Source: Dysgonamonadaceae bacterium
GTDB lineage: Bacteria; Bacteroidota; Bacteroidia; Bacteroidales; Dysgonomonadaceae
Assembly (NCBI GenBank): GCA_031269865.1
Contig: JAISYO010000043.1
Location: 374 to 64,373 of the forward strand
Direction of reading: 5' to 3'
DNA length: 64,000 nucleotides
The notes below the pieces were generated by a model. That model had not been told where the DNA came from. It made no database searches and was given only the letters and a program-made list of their open reading frames with translations. Positions 20,882-53,559 of the stretch are shown in pieces. The position numbers were made by a program, and so were the translations under genes. The first letter of the stretch is position 1; each line of letters starts with the position of its first letter.

Positions 20882-23014
20882 ATGAAAAAGATTTTCCTTA
20901 CTTTATCCGTTGTTTTATTGGCGTTGGCGGCAAAAGCCGACGAAGGAATGTGGCTGCTAAAAGAGCTGAACCGCGAGAGCGTTGCCCGTATGAAAGAATT
21001 GGGTTTCACGTTCCCCATCAACAAGTTGTACGACGAGAACAACCCTTCGCTGAAAGACGCGGTGGTTATTTTCGGGCGCGGTTGTTCGGGCGTGGCGGTT
21101 TCCGATCAGGGGCTTATTTTTACCAACCACCATTGCGGTTACGGCAACATTCAGAAACTGAGTTCCGTTGAACACGATTACCTGAAAGACGGTTTCGCCG
21201 CCACCAAAAAGGCGGACGAGCTTCCTGCCGATGGACTTACCGTTTCGTTTTTGCGCAGTATGGACGAAGTTACCGATCAAATCCTGCCGAAAGTGCCGTT
21301 GGTGTTGAGCGAGATACAGCGCAGCAAACTCATCGATTCGCTCACGAACGACATTCTGCAAGTCTATGAAAAAAATCCTTTCCTTTCCGCACGCATCATT
21401 CCTTTTTACAACAGAAACAAATACTACAAGGTGGTTTACGACGTTTTCCGCGATGTGCGCTTGGCGGTAGCGCCCTCTTCGTCCCTCGGAAAATTTGGTG
21501 GCGACACCGACAACTGGATGTGGCCCCGCCAAACCTGCGATTTTTCGGTTTTCCGCGTATATGCCGACAAAAATAACAAACCTGCCGAATACAACGTCGG
21601 GAACGTGCCCTACAAACCCAAATACGTGGTTCCAGTTTCGTTGGCTGGCGTGAAAGAAAACGATTACGCAATGACTATCGGCTATCCGGGCAGCACCAAC
21701 CGCTATTTGTCGTCGTGGGGTATCCGCCAAATGATGGAATCGGAAAACAAACCCCGCATCGAGGTGCGCGGCGTGAAGCAGGATATTTGGAAAAGCGCGA
21801 TGGTTAAAAGCGATGCCATCCGCATCAAATACGCCTCGAAATACGCCGGAAGTTCCAACTATTGGAAAAACGCGATGGGAATGAACGAGGCGCTCGTCAG
21901 ACTGAACGTGCTGGCGAAAAAAGAAAAATTGGAAGCGGGCTTAGCCAAGTGGATTGCTTCAAGCCCCGCCAACAAAGCCAAATACGGCGGTATGCTCGAC
22001 ACCCTGCGCAACGCCTACACCCAATCGGACGAGCAGGCGAAATACATTACCTATTTCCTCGAAACCTTCAACAATGGCATCGAGCTGATCCGTTTCGCCA
22101 ACACCATCTTACAATTCGACGCCAACGGCACGGAAGAGGACAAAGAAGATTTCGTCAAGGATCGGTTGATCAATTCATACAAGGACTACGAGCCGGAACT
22201 CGACAAGAAAGTGCTTCCCGCCCTGATGAAGCTGTACGCCGAGCGCGTTCCCGAAGAATACCACCCCGACATTTACAAAACCATCGCCGATGATTTCGGC
22301 GGCGATTACCAAAAATATGCCGATTGGTTATTTGACAACTCTAAATTCGTGGACTTCCCCACCTTAATTGAATTATTGAAAACCGCCGACACGCAAGAGC
22401 TGATCAAAGATCCGGCGATGAAACTCGCCCTTTCGGTGCAGGATATGGGCTACGAACTGACGGCAGGGAAAATGATGGCGGACTACGAAAAAATTATGGG
22501 AAGCGAACGCCAATTTATGGTTGCCCTGATGGAAATGAAACAAGGGGTTGCATTCTATCCCGACGCCACCTTCACGCAACGCCTCAGCTACGGCTCGGTA
22601 AAAGGATACCAACCGCGCGATGCCGTTTGGTACGACTATCTCAGCACCACCAACGGCGTTTTGGAAAAACAAAAGCCGGGCGATCCCGAATTTAATGTGC
22701 AACCCCGCATCCTCGATTTGTTGAGGCAGGGGGACTTCGGACAGTATGCCGACAAGCAGGGGAAACTGAACGCCTGTTTCCTTTCCAACAACGACATTAC
22801 CGGTGGAAATTCCGGCAGTCCGGTGTTCAACGGAAAAGCCGAACTGATCGGCTTGGCTTTCGACGGCAATTGGGAAGCGTTGAGCGGCGACATTGTTTTC
22901 GAACCCGAAATGCAACGCACCATCAGCGTGGACATTCGCTACGTGCTTTACACGATCGACAAGGTTATGAACGCGCCCCAACTCATCAAAGAATTGACGG
23001 TGGCGAAGAAATAA
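20882..23014 (+). CDS. S46-family dipeptidyl-peptidase (DPP7/DPP11 type)
   Basis: 710 aa with a signal peptide followed by DEGMWL, catalytic His block NHHCGY and Ser block GGNSGSPV. Confidence 0.9.
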   Translation: MKKIFLTLSVVLLALAAKADEGMWLLKELNRESVARMKELGFTFPINKLYDENNPSLKDAVVIFGRGCSGVAVSDQGLIFTNHHCGYGNIQKLSSVEHDYLKDGFAATKKADELPADGLTVSFLRSMDEVTDQILPKVPLVLSEIQRSKLIDSLTNDILQVYEKNPFLSARIIPFYNRNKYYKVVYDVFRDVRLAVAPSSSLGKFGGDTDNWMWPRQTCDFSVFRVYADKNNKPAEYNVGNVPYKPKYVVPVSLAGVKENDYAMTIGYPGSTNRYLSSWGIRQMMESENKPRIEVRGVKQDIWKSAMVKSDAIRIKYASKYAGSSNYWKNAMGMNEALVRLNVLAKKEKLEAGLAKWIASSPANKAKYGGMLDTLRNAYTQSDEQAKYITYFLETFNNGIELIRFANTILQFDANGTEEDKEDFVKDRLINSYKDYEPELDKKVLPALMKLYAERVPEEYHPDIYKTIADDFGGDYQKYADWLFDNSKFVDFPTLIELLKTADTQELIKDPAMKLALSVQDMGYELTAGKMMADYEKIMGSERQFMVALMEMKQGVAFYPDATFTQRLSYGSVKGYQPRDAVWYDYLSTTNGVLEKQKPGDPEFNVQPRILDLLRQGDFGQYADKQGKLNACFLSNNDITGGNSGSPVFNGKAELIGLAFDGNWEALSGDIVFEPEMQRTISVDIRYVLYTIDKVMNAPQLIKELTVAKK

Positions 23015-23272
23015 GTACCTTCGTCAGTTTATCATTCCGCTTGCGACAAGGCAATGCGGAAGCCCAGACTATCGCTGCGATAGTCTGGGCTTCCAAAATC
23101 GCGAACCGAAACGACAAATTCGTAGGGCGAGCTGTGATCAAACGAAACGCCATTCACGGTTTCAGTGTAATTGCGCGTTTGCCGAGAAAATGCTTGCAAG
23201 GCAAAGGATTATCGTTGTTGGAAGTAGATTTTTGTTCATCATTCGGCGTAGTTATAAAAGTTTAATTTACAA

Positions 23273-24484
23273 TTACTTAAACAAGCGGAGCCCCCTCGAT
23301 TTCTTTTCTTTTTTGGCTTCCGAAGGCGGTACCGTCAGGTAGTTTTTCACGGGGTTTCCGTATATATTGATGATGCAGCTGCGCAGAAAAGCCGCGTCCC
23401 GCCTCGGCATCACTATCTTATCTATCTGCCTTTCGAGGTATTTCTCGAACCTGCCCACGTCCTTCGACGTATAATTGCGCTTAAACGTCGTCGTGCCCGT
23501 CATCAAGTCGTAGGCGACATAATTGAAGGGAAGGAAAACATAATTCCTATAAATTTCGGCGTCAATCAATTCGGCGGTTTTCTGTGTGAAATCGGAATGG
23601 TTCAGCGTGGAATCAATTTTGTCGAATTGGGGGTTGATACATTCCCCGAACTTGAAATAAACGTGCCCCTTAAATCCCACAAGCCCGGTAATCATACTTT
23701 CCAAATCGTCCATCAAGGTTTTTTTGAATTCGGGGTTGTCGCGCTTCAACTGCATCTCTTTTGCTTTGAGGTAATCGCAGGGATCCAACTCGTAAGAGAA
23801 AGTCAATGGGGTTATATTCAAATCTTTAAGTGTCTTCAACGGGGAAGTGTCCCCCGACAACGAGAGCATTTTCAACAGGCTTGCCTGCGTTTTATCGTCC
23901 GAATTTTTAGCCCGCCCCTCGCGTTGGGCAATCCACACGGATTCTTTGTTATCCACGACGACGTGGTGTATGTAATCCGACAGGTGCTTTGCCGCTTCCA
24001 ACTTCTGCCTGAGCGTCGCGCTTCTTTTCACGATGAAACTCTTGTTCAGCCGCATCAGGTTGGAAATCCACGGATAAATCAGCAGGTTGTCCCCGATGGC
24101 TACTTCGGTGGTTGACAAGCCTTTACTCATCATTCCGATATTGAGGAAAGAGGCGTCCAAGATAATATCGCGATGATTGGATATGAAAACCTGGCTTTCG
24201 CCCCCGCGCATCACTTTATCCCAATTGAGGCCCTCTACGCCGAGCGTCGTTTTCTTTATCAAATTGGCAAAAACCGGATAAATCACGCCCAGCTGAAAGT
24301 CGGATATGGTTTTGCACGCACCCATATTCGATTCGAGATCGCCCCATTTTATCGGTTTGATAAAAGGTTCGACAGCCCGCCTGAAATAATAATTCGTCAG
24401 CAAATCCTTGATGGTTGCGACAGCCTCGTCGTCCCTGAGCGGACGAATATCGTCGAAAGGTTTATCGGCTTTTGTTTTTATCAT
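23273..24484 (-). CDS. PlsC-family acyltransferase (HX4D)
   Basis: The NHRDIILD motif is present. I chose the start at Met16 of the tracked ORF (MIKTKADKPF), 7 nt after the ddl stop. The longer ORF would overlap ddl by 38 nt. Confidence 0.7.
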   Translation of the reverse strand: MIKTKADKPFDDIRPLRDDEAVATIKDLLTNYYFRRAVEPFIKPIKWGDLESNMGACKTISDFQLGVIYPVFANLIKKTTLGVEGLNWDKVMRGGESQVFISNHRDIILDASFLNIGMMSKGLSTTEVAIGDNLLIYPWISNLMRLNKSFIVKRSATLRQKLEAAKHLSDYIHHVVVDNKESVWIAQREGRAKNSDDKTQASLLKMLSLSGDTSPLKTLKDLNITPLTFSYELDPCDYLKAKEMQLKRDNPEFKKTLMDDLESMITGLVGFKGHVYFKFGECINPQFDKIDSTLNHSDFTQKTAELIDAEIYRNYVFLPFNYVAYDLMTGTTTFKRNYTSKDVGRFEKYLERQIDKIVMPRRDAAFLRSCIINIYGNPVKNYLTVPPSEAKKEKKSRGLRLFK

Positions 24485-24491
24485 AACGATT

Positions 24492-25484
24492 TTATCTTTC
24501 GGCTGTTTCCTGAATACTTTCAAATTCAATTATATCGTCCAAAACAGCCTTCATCGACAATCCGGCGGCTACCACTTGTTGCGGTATAAAACTTGTAACA
24601 GTCATACCCGGTGTCGTGTTCACTTCGAGAAGCACCGGATTGCCGTTAGATACGATGAAATCGGCGCGGATAATCCCTTTTGCACCCACCCAATCGTAGA
24701 TTTGCGCCGTCAAGTCCTGAATTTTTTTCGTCATCTCGTCGGGGATACGCGCCGGGGTTATTTCCTGCACCTGCCCTCTGTACTTGGCTTTATAATCAAA
24801 AAATTCGTTTTTCGGCATCACTTCGGTTAAGGGCAGGACGGTAAGCCCCTTCGCCGTCTTGAAACAACCGCAGGTAACTTCCGTGCCCGGCACAAAACTT
24901 TCCACGATGACTTCCGGCGCTTCCTCGAAGGCACTTTTTATCGCCATTTGCAATTGCGACGGCTCTTTTACCTTCGTGGTTGCGAAACTCGATCCGCCCA
25001 CGTTGGGCTTCACGAAAACAGGCAGTCCGAGCCGAGCCACGATTGCCGCGCCGTCATAAGCTGTGCCGCGCCGAATGAGTAGCGAATCCGCCACCTGCAC
25101 GCCGAAACTCGCCAAGTATCTATTGCAAGTGAATTTGCTGAAAGTCAGTGCCGAAGCCAACACGCCACAATTGGAATACGGTATGCCCTGCATATCGAGA
25201 TAGCCCTGCAAGGTGCCATCTTCGCCGGGGGTGCCGTGAACAGTAATGTAGGCAAAGTCGAAGCGTTTTTTCTCGCCGCGATACGTAAAGCTGAACGTGT
25301 TTTTATCAACCGGGTATATCACGCCCTTGTATTCCACCTTCCACGAATGACGGTTGATTTTTACCATATATACCTTGTACTTACTTTTGTCGATAAAAGA
25401 ATAGATGCCTTTGGCACTTCGTGCCGAGACTTCCCTTTCGGACGAGTATCCGCCCCAAACAATTGCAATTTTCTTTCTTCTCAT
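24492..25484 (-). CDS. ddl: D-alanine--D-alanine ligase
   Basis: 330 aa ATP-grasp protein with blocks LHGTPGEDG-like VHGTPGEDGTLQG and LEVNTTPGMT. Confidence 0.93.
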   Translation of the reverse strand: MRRKKIAIVWGGYSSEREVSARSAKGIYSFIDKSKYKVYMVKINRHSWKVEYKGVIYPVDKNTFSFTYRGEKKRFDFAYITVHGTPGEDGTLQGYLDMQGIPYSNCGVLASALTFSKFTCNRYLASFGVQVADSLLIRRGTAYDGAAIVARLGLPVFVKPNVGGSSFATTKVKEPSQLQMAIKSAFEEAPEVIVESFVPGTEVTCGCFKTAKGLTVLPLTEVMPKNEFFDYKAKYRGQVQEITPARIPDEMTKKIQDLTAQIYDWVGAKGIIRADFIVSNGNPVLLEVNTTPGMTVTSFIPQQVVAAGLSMKAVLDDIIEFESIQETAER

Positions 25485-49271: not shown

Positions 49272-50975
49272 TTAAATTGTATGTCCGTTTCCCAACAAAA
49301 TGTTGGTAACGCAGGTGCCGGCAGGAATCATCGGGTAAACCATACCCTTTGTTTCCACCGCGACTTCGAGCAGGTAAGCGCCCTTATGCGTCAGCATCTC
49401 GTCAATCGCCGCGTCCAAATCGCCGCGCTCGGTAACTTTTTTCCCTTTTATCCCGTATGCTTCGGCAATTTTGATGAAATCGGGGTTTTTCATCTGTGTT
49501 TCCGAATAGCGTTCGTCGAAAAACAACTCTTGCCATTGGCGCACCATTCCCAAAAAATTATTGTTCAGCAAAATGATTTTCACATCAACCCCGTGTTCCA
49601 TAATCGTGCCAAATTCCTGAATCGTCATCTGCAAACCGCCGTCGCCCACGAAAACACAAACCTTGCGATCGGGTGCGCCATATTTCGCCCCGATAGCGGC
49701 GGGAAGTCCGAAACCCATCGTCCCCAAACCGCCGGACGTTACCATACTGCGCGATTGGGTGTACTTGAAATAACGGGTGCCCATCATCTGATTTTGCCCC
49801 ACGTCGGTAACGCAAACGGCTTTGTTTCCGGTGGCTTCCGTTATTTTATTGACGACTTCGCCCATTTTTATCGCGCCTTCCGCCGGGTGCAGTTCGTCAT
49901 CGATCACACAACGGCGCTCTTTTTCGTAAAGCGGCTTAAATTCGCCGATCCAATCCGCGTGGGAATTTTTTTCCATCAGTGCCGTTACCAAGGGCAGGGT
50001 TTGTTTGGCGTTGCCAAGCACTTTTACCGTGGTTTTCACGTTTTTGTCCATCTCGGCACGATCGATGTCGAAATGTATCACTTCCGCTTGCTTGGCATAG
50101 GTATTCAAATCGCCCGTAACGCGATCGTCGAAACGCATTCCGATGGCAATCAGCACGTCGCACTCGTTCGTTTTCAGATTGGGGGCGATATTGCCGTGCA
50201 TTCCCAACATTCCCATATTCAAGGAATGATTGGAAGGAACAGCCGACAAGCCCAAGATGGTGGAACCGAAGGGGATATTCCCTTTTTCGAGAAAAGCTAT
50301 CAACTCTTTTTCGGCGTTGCCGAGGATAACGCCCTGCCCCACCAACGCCAAGGGTTTTTTGGCGCGGTTGATGAGTTCGGCGGCTTGTTTTATCTTTTCC
50401 ATACAAGATTCTATTTCAGGTTGATAGCTGCGCAGGAAAGTCGTTTTTCCATACGAAAATTCACATTCCTTGGTTTGCGCGTCTTTTGCAATGTCGAGAA
50501 CCACCGGTCCCGGCCTTCCGCTCGCGGCGATATAAAATGCCCGCGATACCGCCCACGGAACATCTTCCACGCGGCGAATCTGATACGCCCATTTTGTTAC
50601 CGGTTGTGTTACCCCGATCACGTCCGCTTCCTGAAAAGCATCTGAACCCAACAACGAGGAAGCCACCTGCCCCGAAATAACCACCAACGGCGTGCTGTCC
50701 ATCATCGCATCGGTTATGCCGGTAATGGCATTGGTTGCGCCGGGTCCCGAAGTTACCAACGCCACGCCCACTTTTTTAGAAACCCTTGCATAGCCTTGCG
50801 CGGCGTGTATCGCCCCTTGCTCGTGGCGGACGAGGATATGCTTTATATCGTTTTTGTGATCATACAATGCATCGAATACGGGCATTATCGCACCGCCCGG
50901 ATAACCGAAAATGGTATCCACCCCTTCGTGTAACAACGATTGCAGCAGCGCCTCGCTTCCTGTTAAATTTCTCAT
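49272..50975 (-). CDS. ilvB: Acetolactate synthase large subunit
   Basis: 567 aa with the TPP-binding block GDGGLQMTIQEF. Confidence 0.95.
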   Translation of the reverse strand: MRNLTGSEALLQSLLHEGVDTIFGYPGGAIMPVFDALYDHKNDIKHILVRHEQGAIHAAQGYARVSKKVGVALVTSGPGATNAITGITDAMMDSTPLVVISGQVASSLLGSDAFQEADVIGVTQPVTKWAYQIRRVEDVPWAVSRAFYIAASGRPGPVVLDIAKDAQTKECEFSYGKTTFLRSYQPEIESCMEKIKQAAELINRAKKPLALVGQGVILGNAEKELIAFLEKGNIPFGSTILGLSAVPSNHSLNMGMLGMHGNIAPNLKTNECDVLIAIGMRFDDRVTGDLNTYAKQAEVIHFDIDRAEMDKNVKTTVKVLGNAKQTLPLVTALMEKNSHADWIGEFKPLYEKERRCVIDDELHPAEGAIKMGEVVNKITEATGNKAVCVTDVGQNQMMGTRYFKYTQSRSMVTSGGLGTMGFGLPAAIGAKYGAPDRKVCVFVGDGGLQMTIQEFGTIMEHGVDVKIILLNNNFLGMVRQWQELFFDERYSETQMKNPDFIKIAEAYGIKGKKVTERGDLDAAIDEMLTHKGAYLLEVAVETKGMVYPMIPAGTCVTNILLGNGHTI

Positions 50976-50981
50976 ATATTT

Positions 50982-51608
50982 TTAAATATCGTTTTTGTAA
51001 AATGTATCTATTTCCCAATTTATCGGGTTATTTTCAATGTATTCCGCAATCGTCCCGTGTTCGTGTTGGTCACGGATAATGTGTTCGTGATAATTGCGTT
51101 GCCAAACGGAAAAATCTAATTGTTTGGAAACGGCAGATTTATAACCTCGCATAATCGCACCCACCGTTTGCGATGGCGACCGTAGGGGCGTATTACATAC
51201 GCCCTGATTGCATACGCCCTGATTGCATACGCCATTATCAAATTCATTATCCATTATTTTATTATTTATTGGCGTATTATTTATTGGCGTATTATTTGAG
51301 GGCGTATGCAATACGCCCCTACACGCATCATCGAATTTTGTAACAATTTCCACAATCGCGTGAAAATGATTGGGCATCACAATGAAATTATGTAATTGCA
51401 CATTTGGGCGTAATTCTACCGTTTTTAACCATTCGTTGTGTGCAATTTTTCCCGCATCGTTTAAAATCATTTTTCCACCCGGAATTTCCCCAAACAAACA
51501 TTCCCGATTTTGTACGCAAACGGTTACAAAATATAATCCCACCTGCGAATAATCGTATTCACGCAGGCGAATGCTACGGCGGTGGTGTATATCGGGGTTA
51601 TAGGGCAT
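50982..51608 (-). CDS. RAYT/IS200-like Y1 (HUH) transposase-family protein with an internal repeat-encoded insert
   Basis: 208 aa with HUH block MPNHFHAIV and a C-terminal WQRNYHEHIIRD...YIENNP block. The middle (NTPINNTPINN...GVCNQGVCNQGVCNTPL) is encoded by 15-bp tandem repeats and two GGGCGTAT-N3-ATACGCCC palindromes. Confidence 0.8.
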   Translation of the reverse strand: MPYNPDIHHRRSIRLREYDYSQVGLYFVTVCVQNRECLFGEIPGGKMILNDAGKIAHNEWLKTVELRPNVQLHNFIVMPNHFHAIVEIVTKFDDACRGVLHTPSNNTPINNTPINNKIMDNEFDNGVCNQGVCNQGVCNTPLRSPSQTVGAIMRGYKSAVSKQLDFSVWQRNYHEHIIRDQHEHGTIAEYIENNPINWEIDTFYKNDI

Positions 51609-51702
51609 TTTTATTTTTTTATTGCAATTACCAAAATCGGTGTTTTCATTTCACACAAAACAAATGAAGAGTCTTTCAAAATAGCAAATATCTTTTTCAT
51701 TT

Positions 51703-53559
51703 TCAATTTTCAATTACCCTCACTGCCCCTTTATCTGCCGACGACACCATACTTGCATAAGCCTGTAACGCTTTGGAAATTACTCGATTACGGTCTTTCG
51801 GCGTGAATGCGTTTTTGCCTCGTGCAAACTCTGCGTTGCGGCGATTTTGCAATTCTTCGTCGGAAAGCAACACGTTGATTGAACGCTTGGGAATGTCTAT
51901 TTCTATCGTGTCGCCGTCCCTTACCAAGCCTATCGCGCCACCTGCCGCCGCTTCGGGTGAAACGTGCCCGATGGACAAGCCCGACGTACCGCCCGAAAAA
52001 CGTCCATCGGTAATCAAGGCGCAATCTTTACCCAAATGGCGGGCTTTGATATACGAGGTGGGATAGAGCATTTCCTGCATTCCGGGTCCGCCTTTGGGTC
52101 CTTCGTAGATGATGACGACAACGTCGCCCGACTGCACTTTTCCGCCGAGTATGTCCTCGCAAGCATCGTCCTGCGATTGAAAAACCTTGGCGGTGCCTGA
52201 AAATTTCCAAATGCTCTCGTCCACCCCTGCCGTCTTGACGACACAACCGTCGAGGGCAATGTTCCCTTTCAGTATCGCCAAACCGCCGTCCTTGCTGTAA
52301 GCGTGCGCCAAGTCGCGGATACAACCGTTCTCGCGATCGGCGTCGAGCGCGGCGTACCGTTCGTTTTGCGAACCCATCGCTAAATTGAATCGCTGCGCGG
52401 GTGCGGACGAATAAATATCTTTTGCCGCCGCCGATACGTCGTTGGCGGTAGCGGAATAGCTTGCGATGGCTTCCGACAGAGAAAGCCCATCGACACGCCC
52501 CACCGAGGTGTCAATCAAAGCCCCTTTGTGCAATTCGCCCAAAATGTTCAAAATTCCGCCGGCGCGGTTCACGTCCTGAATATGGTATTTTTTTGTGTTG
52601 GGCGCGACTTTGCAGATGCAGGGGACTTTGCGCGACAAGGCGTCTATGTCGTCCATCGTGAAACGGACTTCTGCCTCGCGAGCAATCGCCAACAAGTGCA
52701 GGATCGTGTTCGTTGAACCGCCCATCGCAATATCGAGCGACATCGCATTGAGAAAGGCAGGGCGCGTGGCTATGTTCCTCGGCAAAACGCTTTTGTCGCC
52801 CTCAGCATAATAGCGATGCGCATTTTCCACGATTTGCCTCGCCGCTTTTTTGAACAATTCAATGCGGTTGGCGTGCGTGGCAACGATGGTGCCGTTTCCG
52901 GGCAACGCCAACCCGATGGCTTCGTTCAGGCAGTTCATCGAGTTTGCCGTGAACATTCCCGAACAAGAACCGCAGGTGGGGCAAGCCAAGCGTTCGAGAT
53001 CCAACACCCGTTTATCGGAAACGGACTCGTCGGCGGACTCAATCATCGCGTCAATCAAATCCACTTGCTCCCCGTCTATCTTTCCTGCTTCCATCGGTCC
53101 GCCCGAAACAAAAATCGCGGGGATATTCAGGCGCATCGCAGCCATCAGCATTCCCGGCGTGATCTTGTCGCAGTTGCTGATACAAACCAAGGCATCAGCT
53201 TTGTGCGCATTAACCATATATTCCACCGAATCGGCAATCAAGTCGCGCGAAGGAAGGGAATACAACATACCGTCGTGCCCCATAGCGATGCCATCGTCCA
53301 CCGCAATGGTGTTGAATTCGGCGGCGAAACAACCCAATTTCTCAATTTCGGCTTTCACTACCTGCCCTATTTCGTGCAGATGCACGTGCCCCGGCACAAA
53401 CTGCGTGAAAGAATTGGCTATCGCGATAATCGGCTTTCCCATCTGTTCCTCAGTCATACCGTTGGCTCGCCAAAGCGCACGCGCCCCCGCCATGCGGCGC
53501 GAGAAGCGATCGCCCCGGAAGGCTATTTTATTCTTGGACGAATTATCCTTGTCTCTCAT
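51703..53559 (-). CDS. ilvD: Dihydroxy-acid dehydratase
   Basis: 618 aa with the CDKITPGM block and Fe-S cysteines. Confidence 0.95.

Follow-up and report, generated by a model that had tools for sequence, protein, structure and literature searches.

A gene inserted between ilvD and ilvB in a Dysgonamonadaceae bacterium encodes a predicted tyrosine transposase of the kind associated with repetitive extragenic palindromes (REPs), known as a RAYT or TnpA_REP, and the middle of its coding sequence is itself a pair of REPs. The gene lies in a 64,000-nucleotide stretch of contig JAISYO010000043.1, which we call the window. At 51171-51333, two inverted 23-nt REPs, padded by 15-bp duplications of their arms, form a REPIN that is translated in the β3-αC loop of the protein. 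Our overall reading, to which we give a probability of roughly 85%, is that this is an intact RAYT gene of the subclass 2.4 type, that its middle is an in-frame REPIN of the cognate REP type, and that the gene is a lineage-specific insertion at the ilvD-ilvB junction.

The predicted protein

The list of open reading frames (ORFs) with translations contains the gene as a full-length minus-strand frame of 208 amino acids, and the protein includes MPNHFHAIV and WQRNYHEHIIRD. The stop codon occupies 50982-50984 and the ATG of ilvB 50975-50973, leaving a gap of 6 nt. Upstream lies ilvD and downstream lie ilvB, ilvN, and ilvC, all in the same orientation. These coordinates agree with a preliminary description of this DNA, made from the letters alone, that had reported an intact HUH/Y1-family ORF co-oriented with its ilv neighbors; the frameshift that it had named as a possible objection was not encountered, the frame being intact. 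The N-terminus MPYNPDIHHRRSIRL is kept among RAYT homologs in an alignment of 26 sequences, and thus the ATG at 51608 is the start and the 208-amino-acid model is correct. The public annotation of the identical gene in a metagenome-assembled genome (P0001, 186 amino acids) begins 22 codons too late, corresponding to window positions 51543-51608.

Curated family models recognize the protein weakly. The Pfam Y1_Tnp profile scored 21.9 bits against a gathering score of 23, and the sole NCBIfam match, REP_Tyr_transpos (NF047646), an equivalog model built on canonical RAYTs, reached 56.8 bits against a cutoff of 80 and was split into two stretches. A homology search with the protein returned 7756 relatives, the best-scoring of which are 171 to 286 amino acids long. 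The alignment of 26 homologs shows a conserved N-terminal half, extending to MPNHFH, and a conserved C-terminal half carrying RSPSQTxGAIVRGYKS, WQRNYxEHIIR, and YIxNNP. The segment between them is repetitive and hypervariable in length, as the preliminary description had suspected, and length variation is restricted to the loop that follows the HUH strand and precedes the next helix. A circularly permuted mobile unit with its ends at the internal REPIN was considered and rejected, as the N- and C-terminal halves stand in normal order.

When a profile of the family alignment was compared with solved structures, the single match was the Escherichia coli TnpA_REP in complex with a REP hairpin (4ER8). 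In an AlphaFold2 model made from the alignment, predicted local distance difference test (pLDDT) values are 85 to 98 in the core. Foldseek again placed 4ER8_A first (E = 1.1e-6; template modeling score of 0.62 on the target), followed by the ISDra2 and IS608 transposases as secondary fold matches. Residues 93-144, encoded by 51177-51332, have pLDDT values below 50 and no secondary structure; they fall in the loop that joins the HUH strand to the helix after it and correspond to the long hairpin described below. By sequence and fold, we assign the protein to the RAYT-type (TnpA_REP) HUH/Y1 enzymes. Of the earlier label "RAYT/IS200-like," the first half is supported by the sequence and fold match to 4ER8, and the second holds at the superfamily level only.

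The residues expected of such an enzyme are present. W169, Q170, E175, H176, and R179 align with E. coli W94, Q95, E100, H101, and R104, which bind the GTAG guide in the E. coli protein (PMC6006769). In the homolog alignment, W169, R171, E175, I177, and I178 are invariant, and Q170, N172, and R179 occur in at least 90% of sequences; H176, the counterpart of H101, is not among the conserved columns. Y190, I191, N194, and P195 are likewise invariant. The predicted catalytic tyrosine is not that of WQRNY; on alignment it is Y190, in EYIENNP, which aligns with E. coli Y115 (numbered from the printed alignment). The latter is reportedly the catalytic residue of the E. coli enzyme.

An inverted REP pair within the coding sequence

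The palindrome GGGCGTAT-N3-ATACGCCC occurs exactly at 51186-51204 and 51300-51318, as first described, with about 0.02 matches expected by chance in the window; no further exact copy was found in the 64 kb. A GTAG foot adjoins each palindrome on the outside, at 51182-51185 on the plus strand and at 51319-51322 on the minus strand, and GTAGGGGCG reads from 51182 on the plus strand and from 51322 on the minus strand. With the outer GTAG, each palindrome is therefore a 23-nt unit of GTAG, an 8-bp stem, and a 3-nt loop. The dinucleotide CT spans the 3′ edge of both stems and, by analogy with characterized TnpA_REP systems, could be used as a cleavage site. The only perfect hairpins with a GT[AG]G foot across the 64 kb are these two, none lying outside the gene, which bears out the earlier remark that insertion sequence (IS) ends or REP pairs do not flank it. 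Neither the 94-nt upstream spacer nor the 6-nt downstream spacer contains a REP, the REPs within about 1 kb on either side that mark a REPtron are absent from this locus, and no further REPIN copies were found in the window.

The two palindromes are the inner parts of a long imperfect inverted repeat whose 67-nt arms (51171-51237 and 51267-51333) are 72% complementary. The region folds as a single hairpin of about 160 nt, with energies of -40 kcal/mol as DNA (z = -7.6) and -79.6 kcal/mol as sense RNA (z = -8.6), and in neither case did any shuffle do as well. Two inverted REPs with a spacer that fold as one long hairpin make up a REPIN. An Rfam search of the region gave only spurious, sub-threshold plant-microRNA hairpin models, a consequence of the long hairpin.

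Two arrays of 15-bp tandem repeats had been reported within the element, each with three copies. The arrays are present, as are the encoded peptides GVCNQGVCNQGVCNTPL and NTPINNTPINN; the copy numbers given by Tandem Repeats Finder are slightly lower, 2.8 and 2.5. The first array (51192..51233) is a repetition of the loop and 3′ arm of REP copy 1 and is translated from the sense strand as GVCNQ repeats. The second (51260..51297) repeats part of a 5′ arm, encodes NTPIN repeats, and pairs with the first in the long hairpin.

The opposite strand of this region was also found to resemble the protein. On the plus strand, 51184-51342 encodes a peptide that is 47% identical to RAYT residues 97-149 (tblastn, E = 5e-8), and this similarity lies in an open 56-codon ORF at 51173-51343. 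The antisense similarity is most likely a by-product of symmetry, the REPIN being palindromic.

Linker hairpins across the RAYT family

To set the window gene among its relatives, 80 genomic loci from many phyla were fetched and 71 genes were parsed. A perfect hairpin of at least 8 bp was present in the linker between the HUH motif and the conserved tryptophan in 59 of the 71 genes, compared with 2% of shuffled linkers, and in only 1 to 4 of the 71 genes in the N- and C-terminal coding parts. The supposition that homologs always carry the palindrome in this central segment is thus nearly correct. Almost all of the linker hairpins have the form (GTAG)GGGC-xxxx-loop-xxxx-GCCC(CTAC), the inner stem varying while the GGGC/GCCC base and GTAG/CTAC feet stay the same. 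They come in two layouts, one a single "double-foot" hairpin and the other a pair, of which the left hairpin has its GTAG at the 5′ side and the right one its CTAC at the 3′ side; the window gene shows the latter.

The reading frame in which the element is translated differs between homologs. The sense-strand foot GT[AG]GGG is in frame 0 in 39 cases, in frame 1 in 15, and never in the frame that would make a TAG stop, and the period of linker tandem repeats is a multiple of 3 in 25 of 28 arrays. The avoidance of stop-making frames and the periods in multiples of 3 point to purifying selection on the ORF across the family. The motifs GVLHTP and GVCNTP that recur at the borders of the variable region are the palindrome translated (GGC GTA TNN NAT ACG CC). 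The variants GELHSP and GECNSP are the translation of GGCGAAT..ATTCGCC, so that the change of V to E and the accompanying change of T to S are the two sides of one base pair, a stem-matched replacement of GGCGTAT/ATACGCC by GGCGAAT/ATTCGCC. The peptide AYCIRP is the same palindrome in another frame, and VGA... and RG... are related in the same way. In several loci, for example L068, L011, L007, L047, and L205, hairpins of exactly the same sequence as the internal one stand in the noncoding flanks of the gene, and flanking REPs are present in L205, L068, L011, and others. Across the family, a DNA element is kept at the linker position whatever its frame while the ORF is held open, and we infer that what is conserved is the DNA element rather than the peptide.

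These observations bear on the view that a low-complexity, pentapeptide-like domain is selected for its peptide function and that the palindromes are by-products of codon choice. Some homologs do have precomputed matches to the Pfam pentapeptide family PF01469, and motifs such as GVLHTP and GVCNTPL recur. However, one palindrome encodes different peptides in different homologs (GVLHTP or AYCIRP; VGA... or RG...), the V-to-E change is paired with T-to-S as stem complementarity demands, identical sequences occur in noncoding flanks, and the segment is modeled at low confidence with no secondary structure. We regard a peptide-level explanation as highly improbable.

Dispersed copies of the REP

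Metagenome contigs were scanned for GTAGGGGCGTAT-N3-ATACGCCC, which occurred in at least 120 stretches, and 80 loci were kept. No RAYT-like sequence was found by tblastn in 77 of these 80, and it follows that this exact REP is a dispersed repeat in other genomes. An initial sorting of the matches by regular expressions had placed almost none near a RAYT, and the tblastn repeat agreed. Among the matches listed, many are inverted dimers with spacers of 20 to 70 nt (GTAGGGGCGTATnnnATACGCCC ... GGGCGTATnnnATACGCCCCTAC), the same architecture as the element inside the window gene. Tandem duplications that include a REP arm were found in some of the metagenome REPINs (L100 and L139) and in an extragenic REP upstream of the RAYT gene in L206. 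Arm-repeat arrays thus also occur outside genes, and the 15-bp arrays of the window are a habit of the REP family and not a peculiarity of this coding sequence.

Two of the metagenome loci are unusual in their own right. One (L134, 284-1126) is a tandem array of units of about 84 nt, each with one GTAGGGGCGTAT-N3-ATACGCCC REP; it is not a clustered regularly interspaced short palindromic repeat (CRISPR) array, because the sequence between REPs is nearly identical from unit to unit. In the other (L100, 1528-1631), a 520-codon ORF on a contig without RAYT-like sequence contains the same REPIN, with a tandem repeat (3 x 21 nt) of which a REP arm is part; this has the look of a REPIN kept in frame by an unrelated gene.

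The occurrence of the same sequence outside genes also bears on a role in RNA. The internal hairpin might be selected mainly as an RNA element that throttles RAYT translation or shapes the stability or polarity of an ilvD-RAYT-ilvBNC transcript, with its identity as a DNA REP being secondary. The strong fold of the sense RNA is consistent with this, as is the finding of no terminator-like site on the minus strand between ilvD and ilvB, and Di Nocera et al. have proposed that RAYT expression depends on read-through and is down-regulated by REP hairpins (PMC3733652). Against it, the element has the same sequence as extragenic REPs, which occur in either orientation, and the GTAG/CTAC feet, which serve protein-DNA recognition (PMC8266576), are conserved where RNA folding alone would not need them; the Rfam matches, too, are only spurious. 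We consider an RNA element as the main explanation rather unlikely, and an RNA-level role could coexist with the DNA-level explanation.

Insertion between ilvD and ilvB

A homology search with ilvB identified closest relatives that are 88%, 84%, and 82% identical, including that of Proteiniphilum saccharofermentans. They share the gene order leuA-leuB-ilvD-ilvB-ilvN-ilvC, with ilvD directly before ilvB at a distance of 33 to 167 nt and no RAYT gene at the junction. In the Dysgonamonadaceae bacterium, the short spacer between ilvD and ilvB has received the RAYT gene, of about 0.7 kb, as a lineage-specific insertion. The G+C content of the RAYT gene is 40%, compared with 51% for ilvB, 54% for ilvD, and 49% for the whole window, and this low value is consistent with recent horizontal acquisition. 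The window ilvB is 567 amino acids long, where its relatives are almost all 570 to 614, and its N-terminus is at least seven residues shorter, reading MRNLTGSEALL in place of the MKEEHSNNPVLSGSEALI found in relatives; the start of ilvB (50955-50975) may have been remodeled by the insertion. No second RAYT gene or paralog was found in the 64-kb window. A scan for sigma-70 promoters and terminators gave nothing above shuffled sequence, with a scan model that does not cover Bacteroidota promoters.

A 12-nt imperfect direct repeat, AAATATCGTTTT at 50984-50995 and AAATATCTTTTT at 51686-51697, brackets the RAYT gene almost exactly. If one copy were removed together with the interval, ilvD and ilvB would be about 25 nt apart, close to the 33 nt in one relative (L081). 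The repeat could be insertion microhomology or chance; a target-site duplication was considered and is merely noted, as a rough estimate gives about one chance match per 800 A+T-rich bases.

The nearest RAYT homologs are 57 to 61% identical and lie at unrelated sites, where they are likewise co-oriented with their neighbors. In Viscerimonas tarda, the homolog lies after pyrBI, with REPINs within it as well as upstream and downstream of it. A second (L206, 3896-4471; 59% identity) lies inside an efflux operon, between genes for an outer membrane efflux protein and an RND adaptor. A third (L207/L208) precedes an aminoacyl-tRNA synthetase gene and has an internal REPIN only, as in the window. The L206 gene contains six in-frame tandem REP hairpins with a 30-nt period, and the extragenic REP upstream of it has its 3′ arm three times with a 21-nt period. 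Over 46 loci, scored with a crude ORF proxy, family members showed no preference for co-orientation with their neighbors beyond the usual (++ 10, +- 9, -- 5, -+ 2, and the remainder uncallable). All four of the closest contexts with called genes are co-oriented, which is too few to count.

That the gene is clearly inserted at this site, has the HUH/Y1 fold with secondary fold matches to IS608 and ISDra2, and gives a weak Pfam Y1_Tnp match might suggest an autonomous IS200/IS605-type insertion sequence that moved by means of subterminal hairpins. The borders of the insert have no hairpins or inverted repeats, though, and the hairpins that exist are in the middle of the gene and not at its ends. 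The gene is also single copy in the window, and in both sequence and fold its product matches TnpA_REP best and has the GTAG-binding motif by which RAYTs are told apart. This interpretation is largely refuted.

The insertion may also be seen as a decaying remnant, in which a RAYT gene acquired by horizontal transfer received a REPIN, the ORF is still open by chance or recency, and nothing functions in this genome. Flanking and dispersed REPs are absent from the 64 kb, the G+C content is anomalous, the gene is missing from close relatives, and the family scores are below curated cutoffs, all of which would be expected of such a remnant. The ORF, however, is full length, with a conserved N-terminus and all of the catalytic and guide-binding residues. 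This family as a rule has REPs in frame inside the gene (59 of 71), the avoidance of stop frames and the periods in multiples of 3 indicate family-wide purifying selection, and the L207/L208 homolog is configured alike, its REPIN being internal only. We judge decay to be distinctly unlikely.

Other features of the window

Feature coordinates are collected in Table 1. Elsewhere in the window, a perfect 17-bp palindrome, GGAAGCCCAGACTATCG-ctg-CGATAGTCTGGGCTTCC, was noted at 23058-23094, between convergent ORFs at 20882..23014 (plus strand) and 23273..24529 (minus strand). It is probably a bidirectional terminator and is not related to the REP family.

Table 1. Features of the RAYT gene and its surroundings, in window coordinates
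Feature	Position	Strand	Basis or remark
RAYT/TnpA_REP gene	50982..51608	-	ORF list, family profiles, homologs, 4ER8 sequence and fold match
Predicted catalytic Tyr, Y190 (EYIENNP)	51039..51041	-	Aligned to vdYIyiNP of 4ER8
WQRNYHEHIIR, counterpart of the E. coli GTAG-guide-binding segment	51072..51104	-	Hidden Markov model alignment to 4ER8
REPIN-like inverted REP dimer, one long hairpin	51171..51333	.	Encodes residues ~93-144
REP copy 1, GTAG + GGGCGTAT-tac-ATACGCCC, 23 nt	51182..51204	+	Foot antisense to gene
Tandem array 1, 2.8 x 15 bp (ATTGCATACGCCCTG)	51192..51233	.	Tandem Repeats Finder
Tandem array 2, 2.5 x 15 bp (TATTATTTATTGGCG)	51260..51297	.	Tandem Repeats Finder
REP copy 2, GTAGGGGCGTATTGCATACGCCC, 23 nt	51300..51322	-	Foot on sense strand; inverted relative to copy 1
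HUH motif, H81-F82-H83	51360..51368	-	H81 and H83 invariant; aligned to HMH of 4ER8
ilvB (context)	49272..50975	-	ORF list; begins 6 nt past RAYT stop
Spacer from ilvD stop to RAYT start, A+T-rich, 94 nt	51609..51702	-	No REP and no terminator-like site on minus strand
ilvD (context)	51703..53559	-	ORF list

Discussion

In-frame REPs inside the tnpA_REP genes of subclass 2.4 have already been described by Quentin, Siguier, Chandler, and Fichant (2018, BMC Genomics 19:475; PMC6006769). In that subclass, which is abundant in Bacteroidetes and Cyanobacteria, an insertion domain between β3 and αC is highly variable in length and sequence, and short DNA repeats were given as the explanation. In the cognate REPs, a GT[AG]G foot is joined to a stem whose base consists of three G-C pairs, and these REPs occur in canonical, double-foot, and inverted-dimer forms (PMC6006769). 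The 23-mer at 51300-51322, GTAGGGGCGTATTGCATACGCCC, appears in Table S1 of the same paper as a subclass 2.4 REP. The window gene shares with the subclass a variable insert with 15-bp arrays, in-frame REPs between the HuH motif and the tyrosine, and the cognate REP type, and its homologs include double-foot forms. It differs from most subclass 2.4 genes, which are accompanied by REPs within 1 kb to either side, in having none outside the gene in 64 kb, and in being wedged 6 nt upstream of ilvB in an amino acid biosynthesis cluster. The finding is real but ordinary, the arrangement having been described for this RAYT subclass in 2018; the window gene is a typical member of a described class, and the arrangement is not new. 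The interpretation offered in the preliminary description is supported: of the comparative checks that it suggested, all that were run agreed with it. The Group 4 RAYTs of Bertels et al. (2017, PMC5581495), which are common in Cyanobacteria and Chlorobia and have few associated repeats, may be the same as subclass 2.4.

Other systems resemble the window gene in part. The E. coli TnpA_REP and its REPtron (4ER8; Messing et al. 2012; Ton-Hoang et al. 2012) share the fold, the HUH motif, the WQ..EH..R pattern, and the tyrosine in YIxxNP; sequence identity, however, is about 17%, the E. coli protein does not have the 50-residue insert, and in E. coli the REPs have bulges, are longer, and occur strictly in extragenic DNA, on the flanks of the gene. 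The REPs of the Stenotrophomonas maltophilia REPtron Sm are identical in geometry to those of the window. There, TnpA_REP cleaves the 23-nt REP_Sm, with its GTAG, 8-bp perfect stem, and 3-nt loop, in vitro at a CT adjacent to the hairpin, and in one system GTAG has a part in the choice of cleavage site (Corneloup et al. 2021, NAR 49:6982; PMC8266576). That enzyme is of another subclass (group 3 / 2.5), and its REPs are extragenic and abundant. REPINs as defined by Bertels and Rainey (2011, PLoS Genet 7:e1002132) have the same two inverted REPs and spacer in one long hairpin and are dispersed, as this REP is elsewhere; the window copy differs in lying in frame inside the RAYT coding sequence, with no REPIN population in the 64 kb. 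The IS200/IS605 TnpA proteins of IS608 and ISDra2 share the HUH/Y1 fold and the logic of a hairpin read with a guide tetranucleotide (PMC8266576), but the window gene lacks subterminal end hairpins, is single copy in the window, carries the RAYT-specific GTAG-binding motif, and is sub-threshold in Pfam. Lastly, Rickettsia palindromic elements and intragenic REPs are in-frame palindromic repeats found in still-functional genes, in parts that encode surfaces or loops (reviewed by Di Nocera et al. 2013, PMC3733652). Those occur at scattered positions in unrelated host genes, whereas the element described here occupies a family-fixed position in the gene of its cognate enzyme.

On the basis of these comparisons, the encoded protein would be an HUH/Y1 single-strand-DNA endonuclease that recognizes a GTAG-footed REP hairpin. 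The internal REPs would fold when the DNA is single stranded and, judging from the biochemistry of other TnpA_REP proteins, would be bona fide substrates of the enzyme that they help encode. Replication slippage at the hairpin, or RAYT cleavage and rejoining at the stem-adjacent CT, could produce the in-frame arm duplications and the length variability of the family, and the peptide of residues 93-144 would be a tolerated surface loop. The RAYT gene would presumably be expressed by read-through from ilvD, with ilvBNC in turn transcribed through it.

Several points weigh against the reading of an intact subclass 2.4-type RAYT gene with an in-frame cognate REPIN. The Pfam and NCBIfam scores both fall under curated cutoffs; the insert that splits the match offers an explanation, without proof. 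Our placement in subclass 2.4 is a provisional one, made through shared features and the shared REP and not with the profiles of the original authors. The tandem repeats could have arisen by slippage alone, with no part played by the RAYT. Given that the rest of the 64 kb contains no REP, the enzyme may perhaps have no dispersed substrate and be en route to decay. Finally, P0001 is the only other record of this gene and is identical in sequence, which bears on length polymorphism.

Whether the REPIN is more than a tolerated passenger is a separate matter. It may be a selected, self-contained "seed" or cis-substrate, or a device for self-sensing or regulation. With a REP kept inside the ORF, the RAYT gene can travel from one genome to another as a unit of no more than 0.7 kb, as here into the ilvD-ilvB spacer without REPs at its sides, and a gene so moved would carry the template with which to found a new REP/REPIN population. 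The near-universal, position-fixed, and frame-independent conservation of the element and orphan loci such as the present one and L207 are compatible with such a role, which we nonetheless hold to be fairly unlikely.

The main yield of this analysis is a correct annotation: a subclass 2.4-type RAYT with an in-frame REPIN, recently acquired, within a branched-chain amino acid cluster. The locus offers a clean natural case of a RAYT whose only visible REPs, across 64 kb, lie inside its own gene. It is a convenient test case for whether an internal REP is neutral in a tolerant loop or is a functional part of the RAYT-REP system, as seed, cis-substrate, or regulator. Should transcription of the ilv operon run through an RNA hairpin of about -80 kcal/mol, expression of ilvBNC could be affected by the insertion as well.

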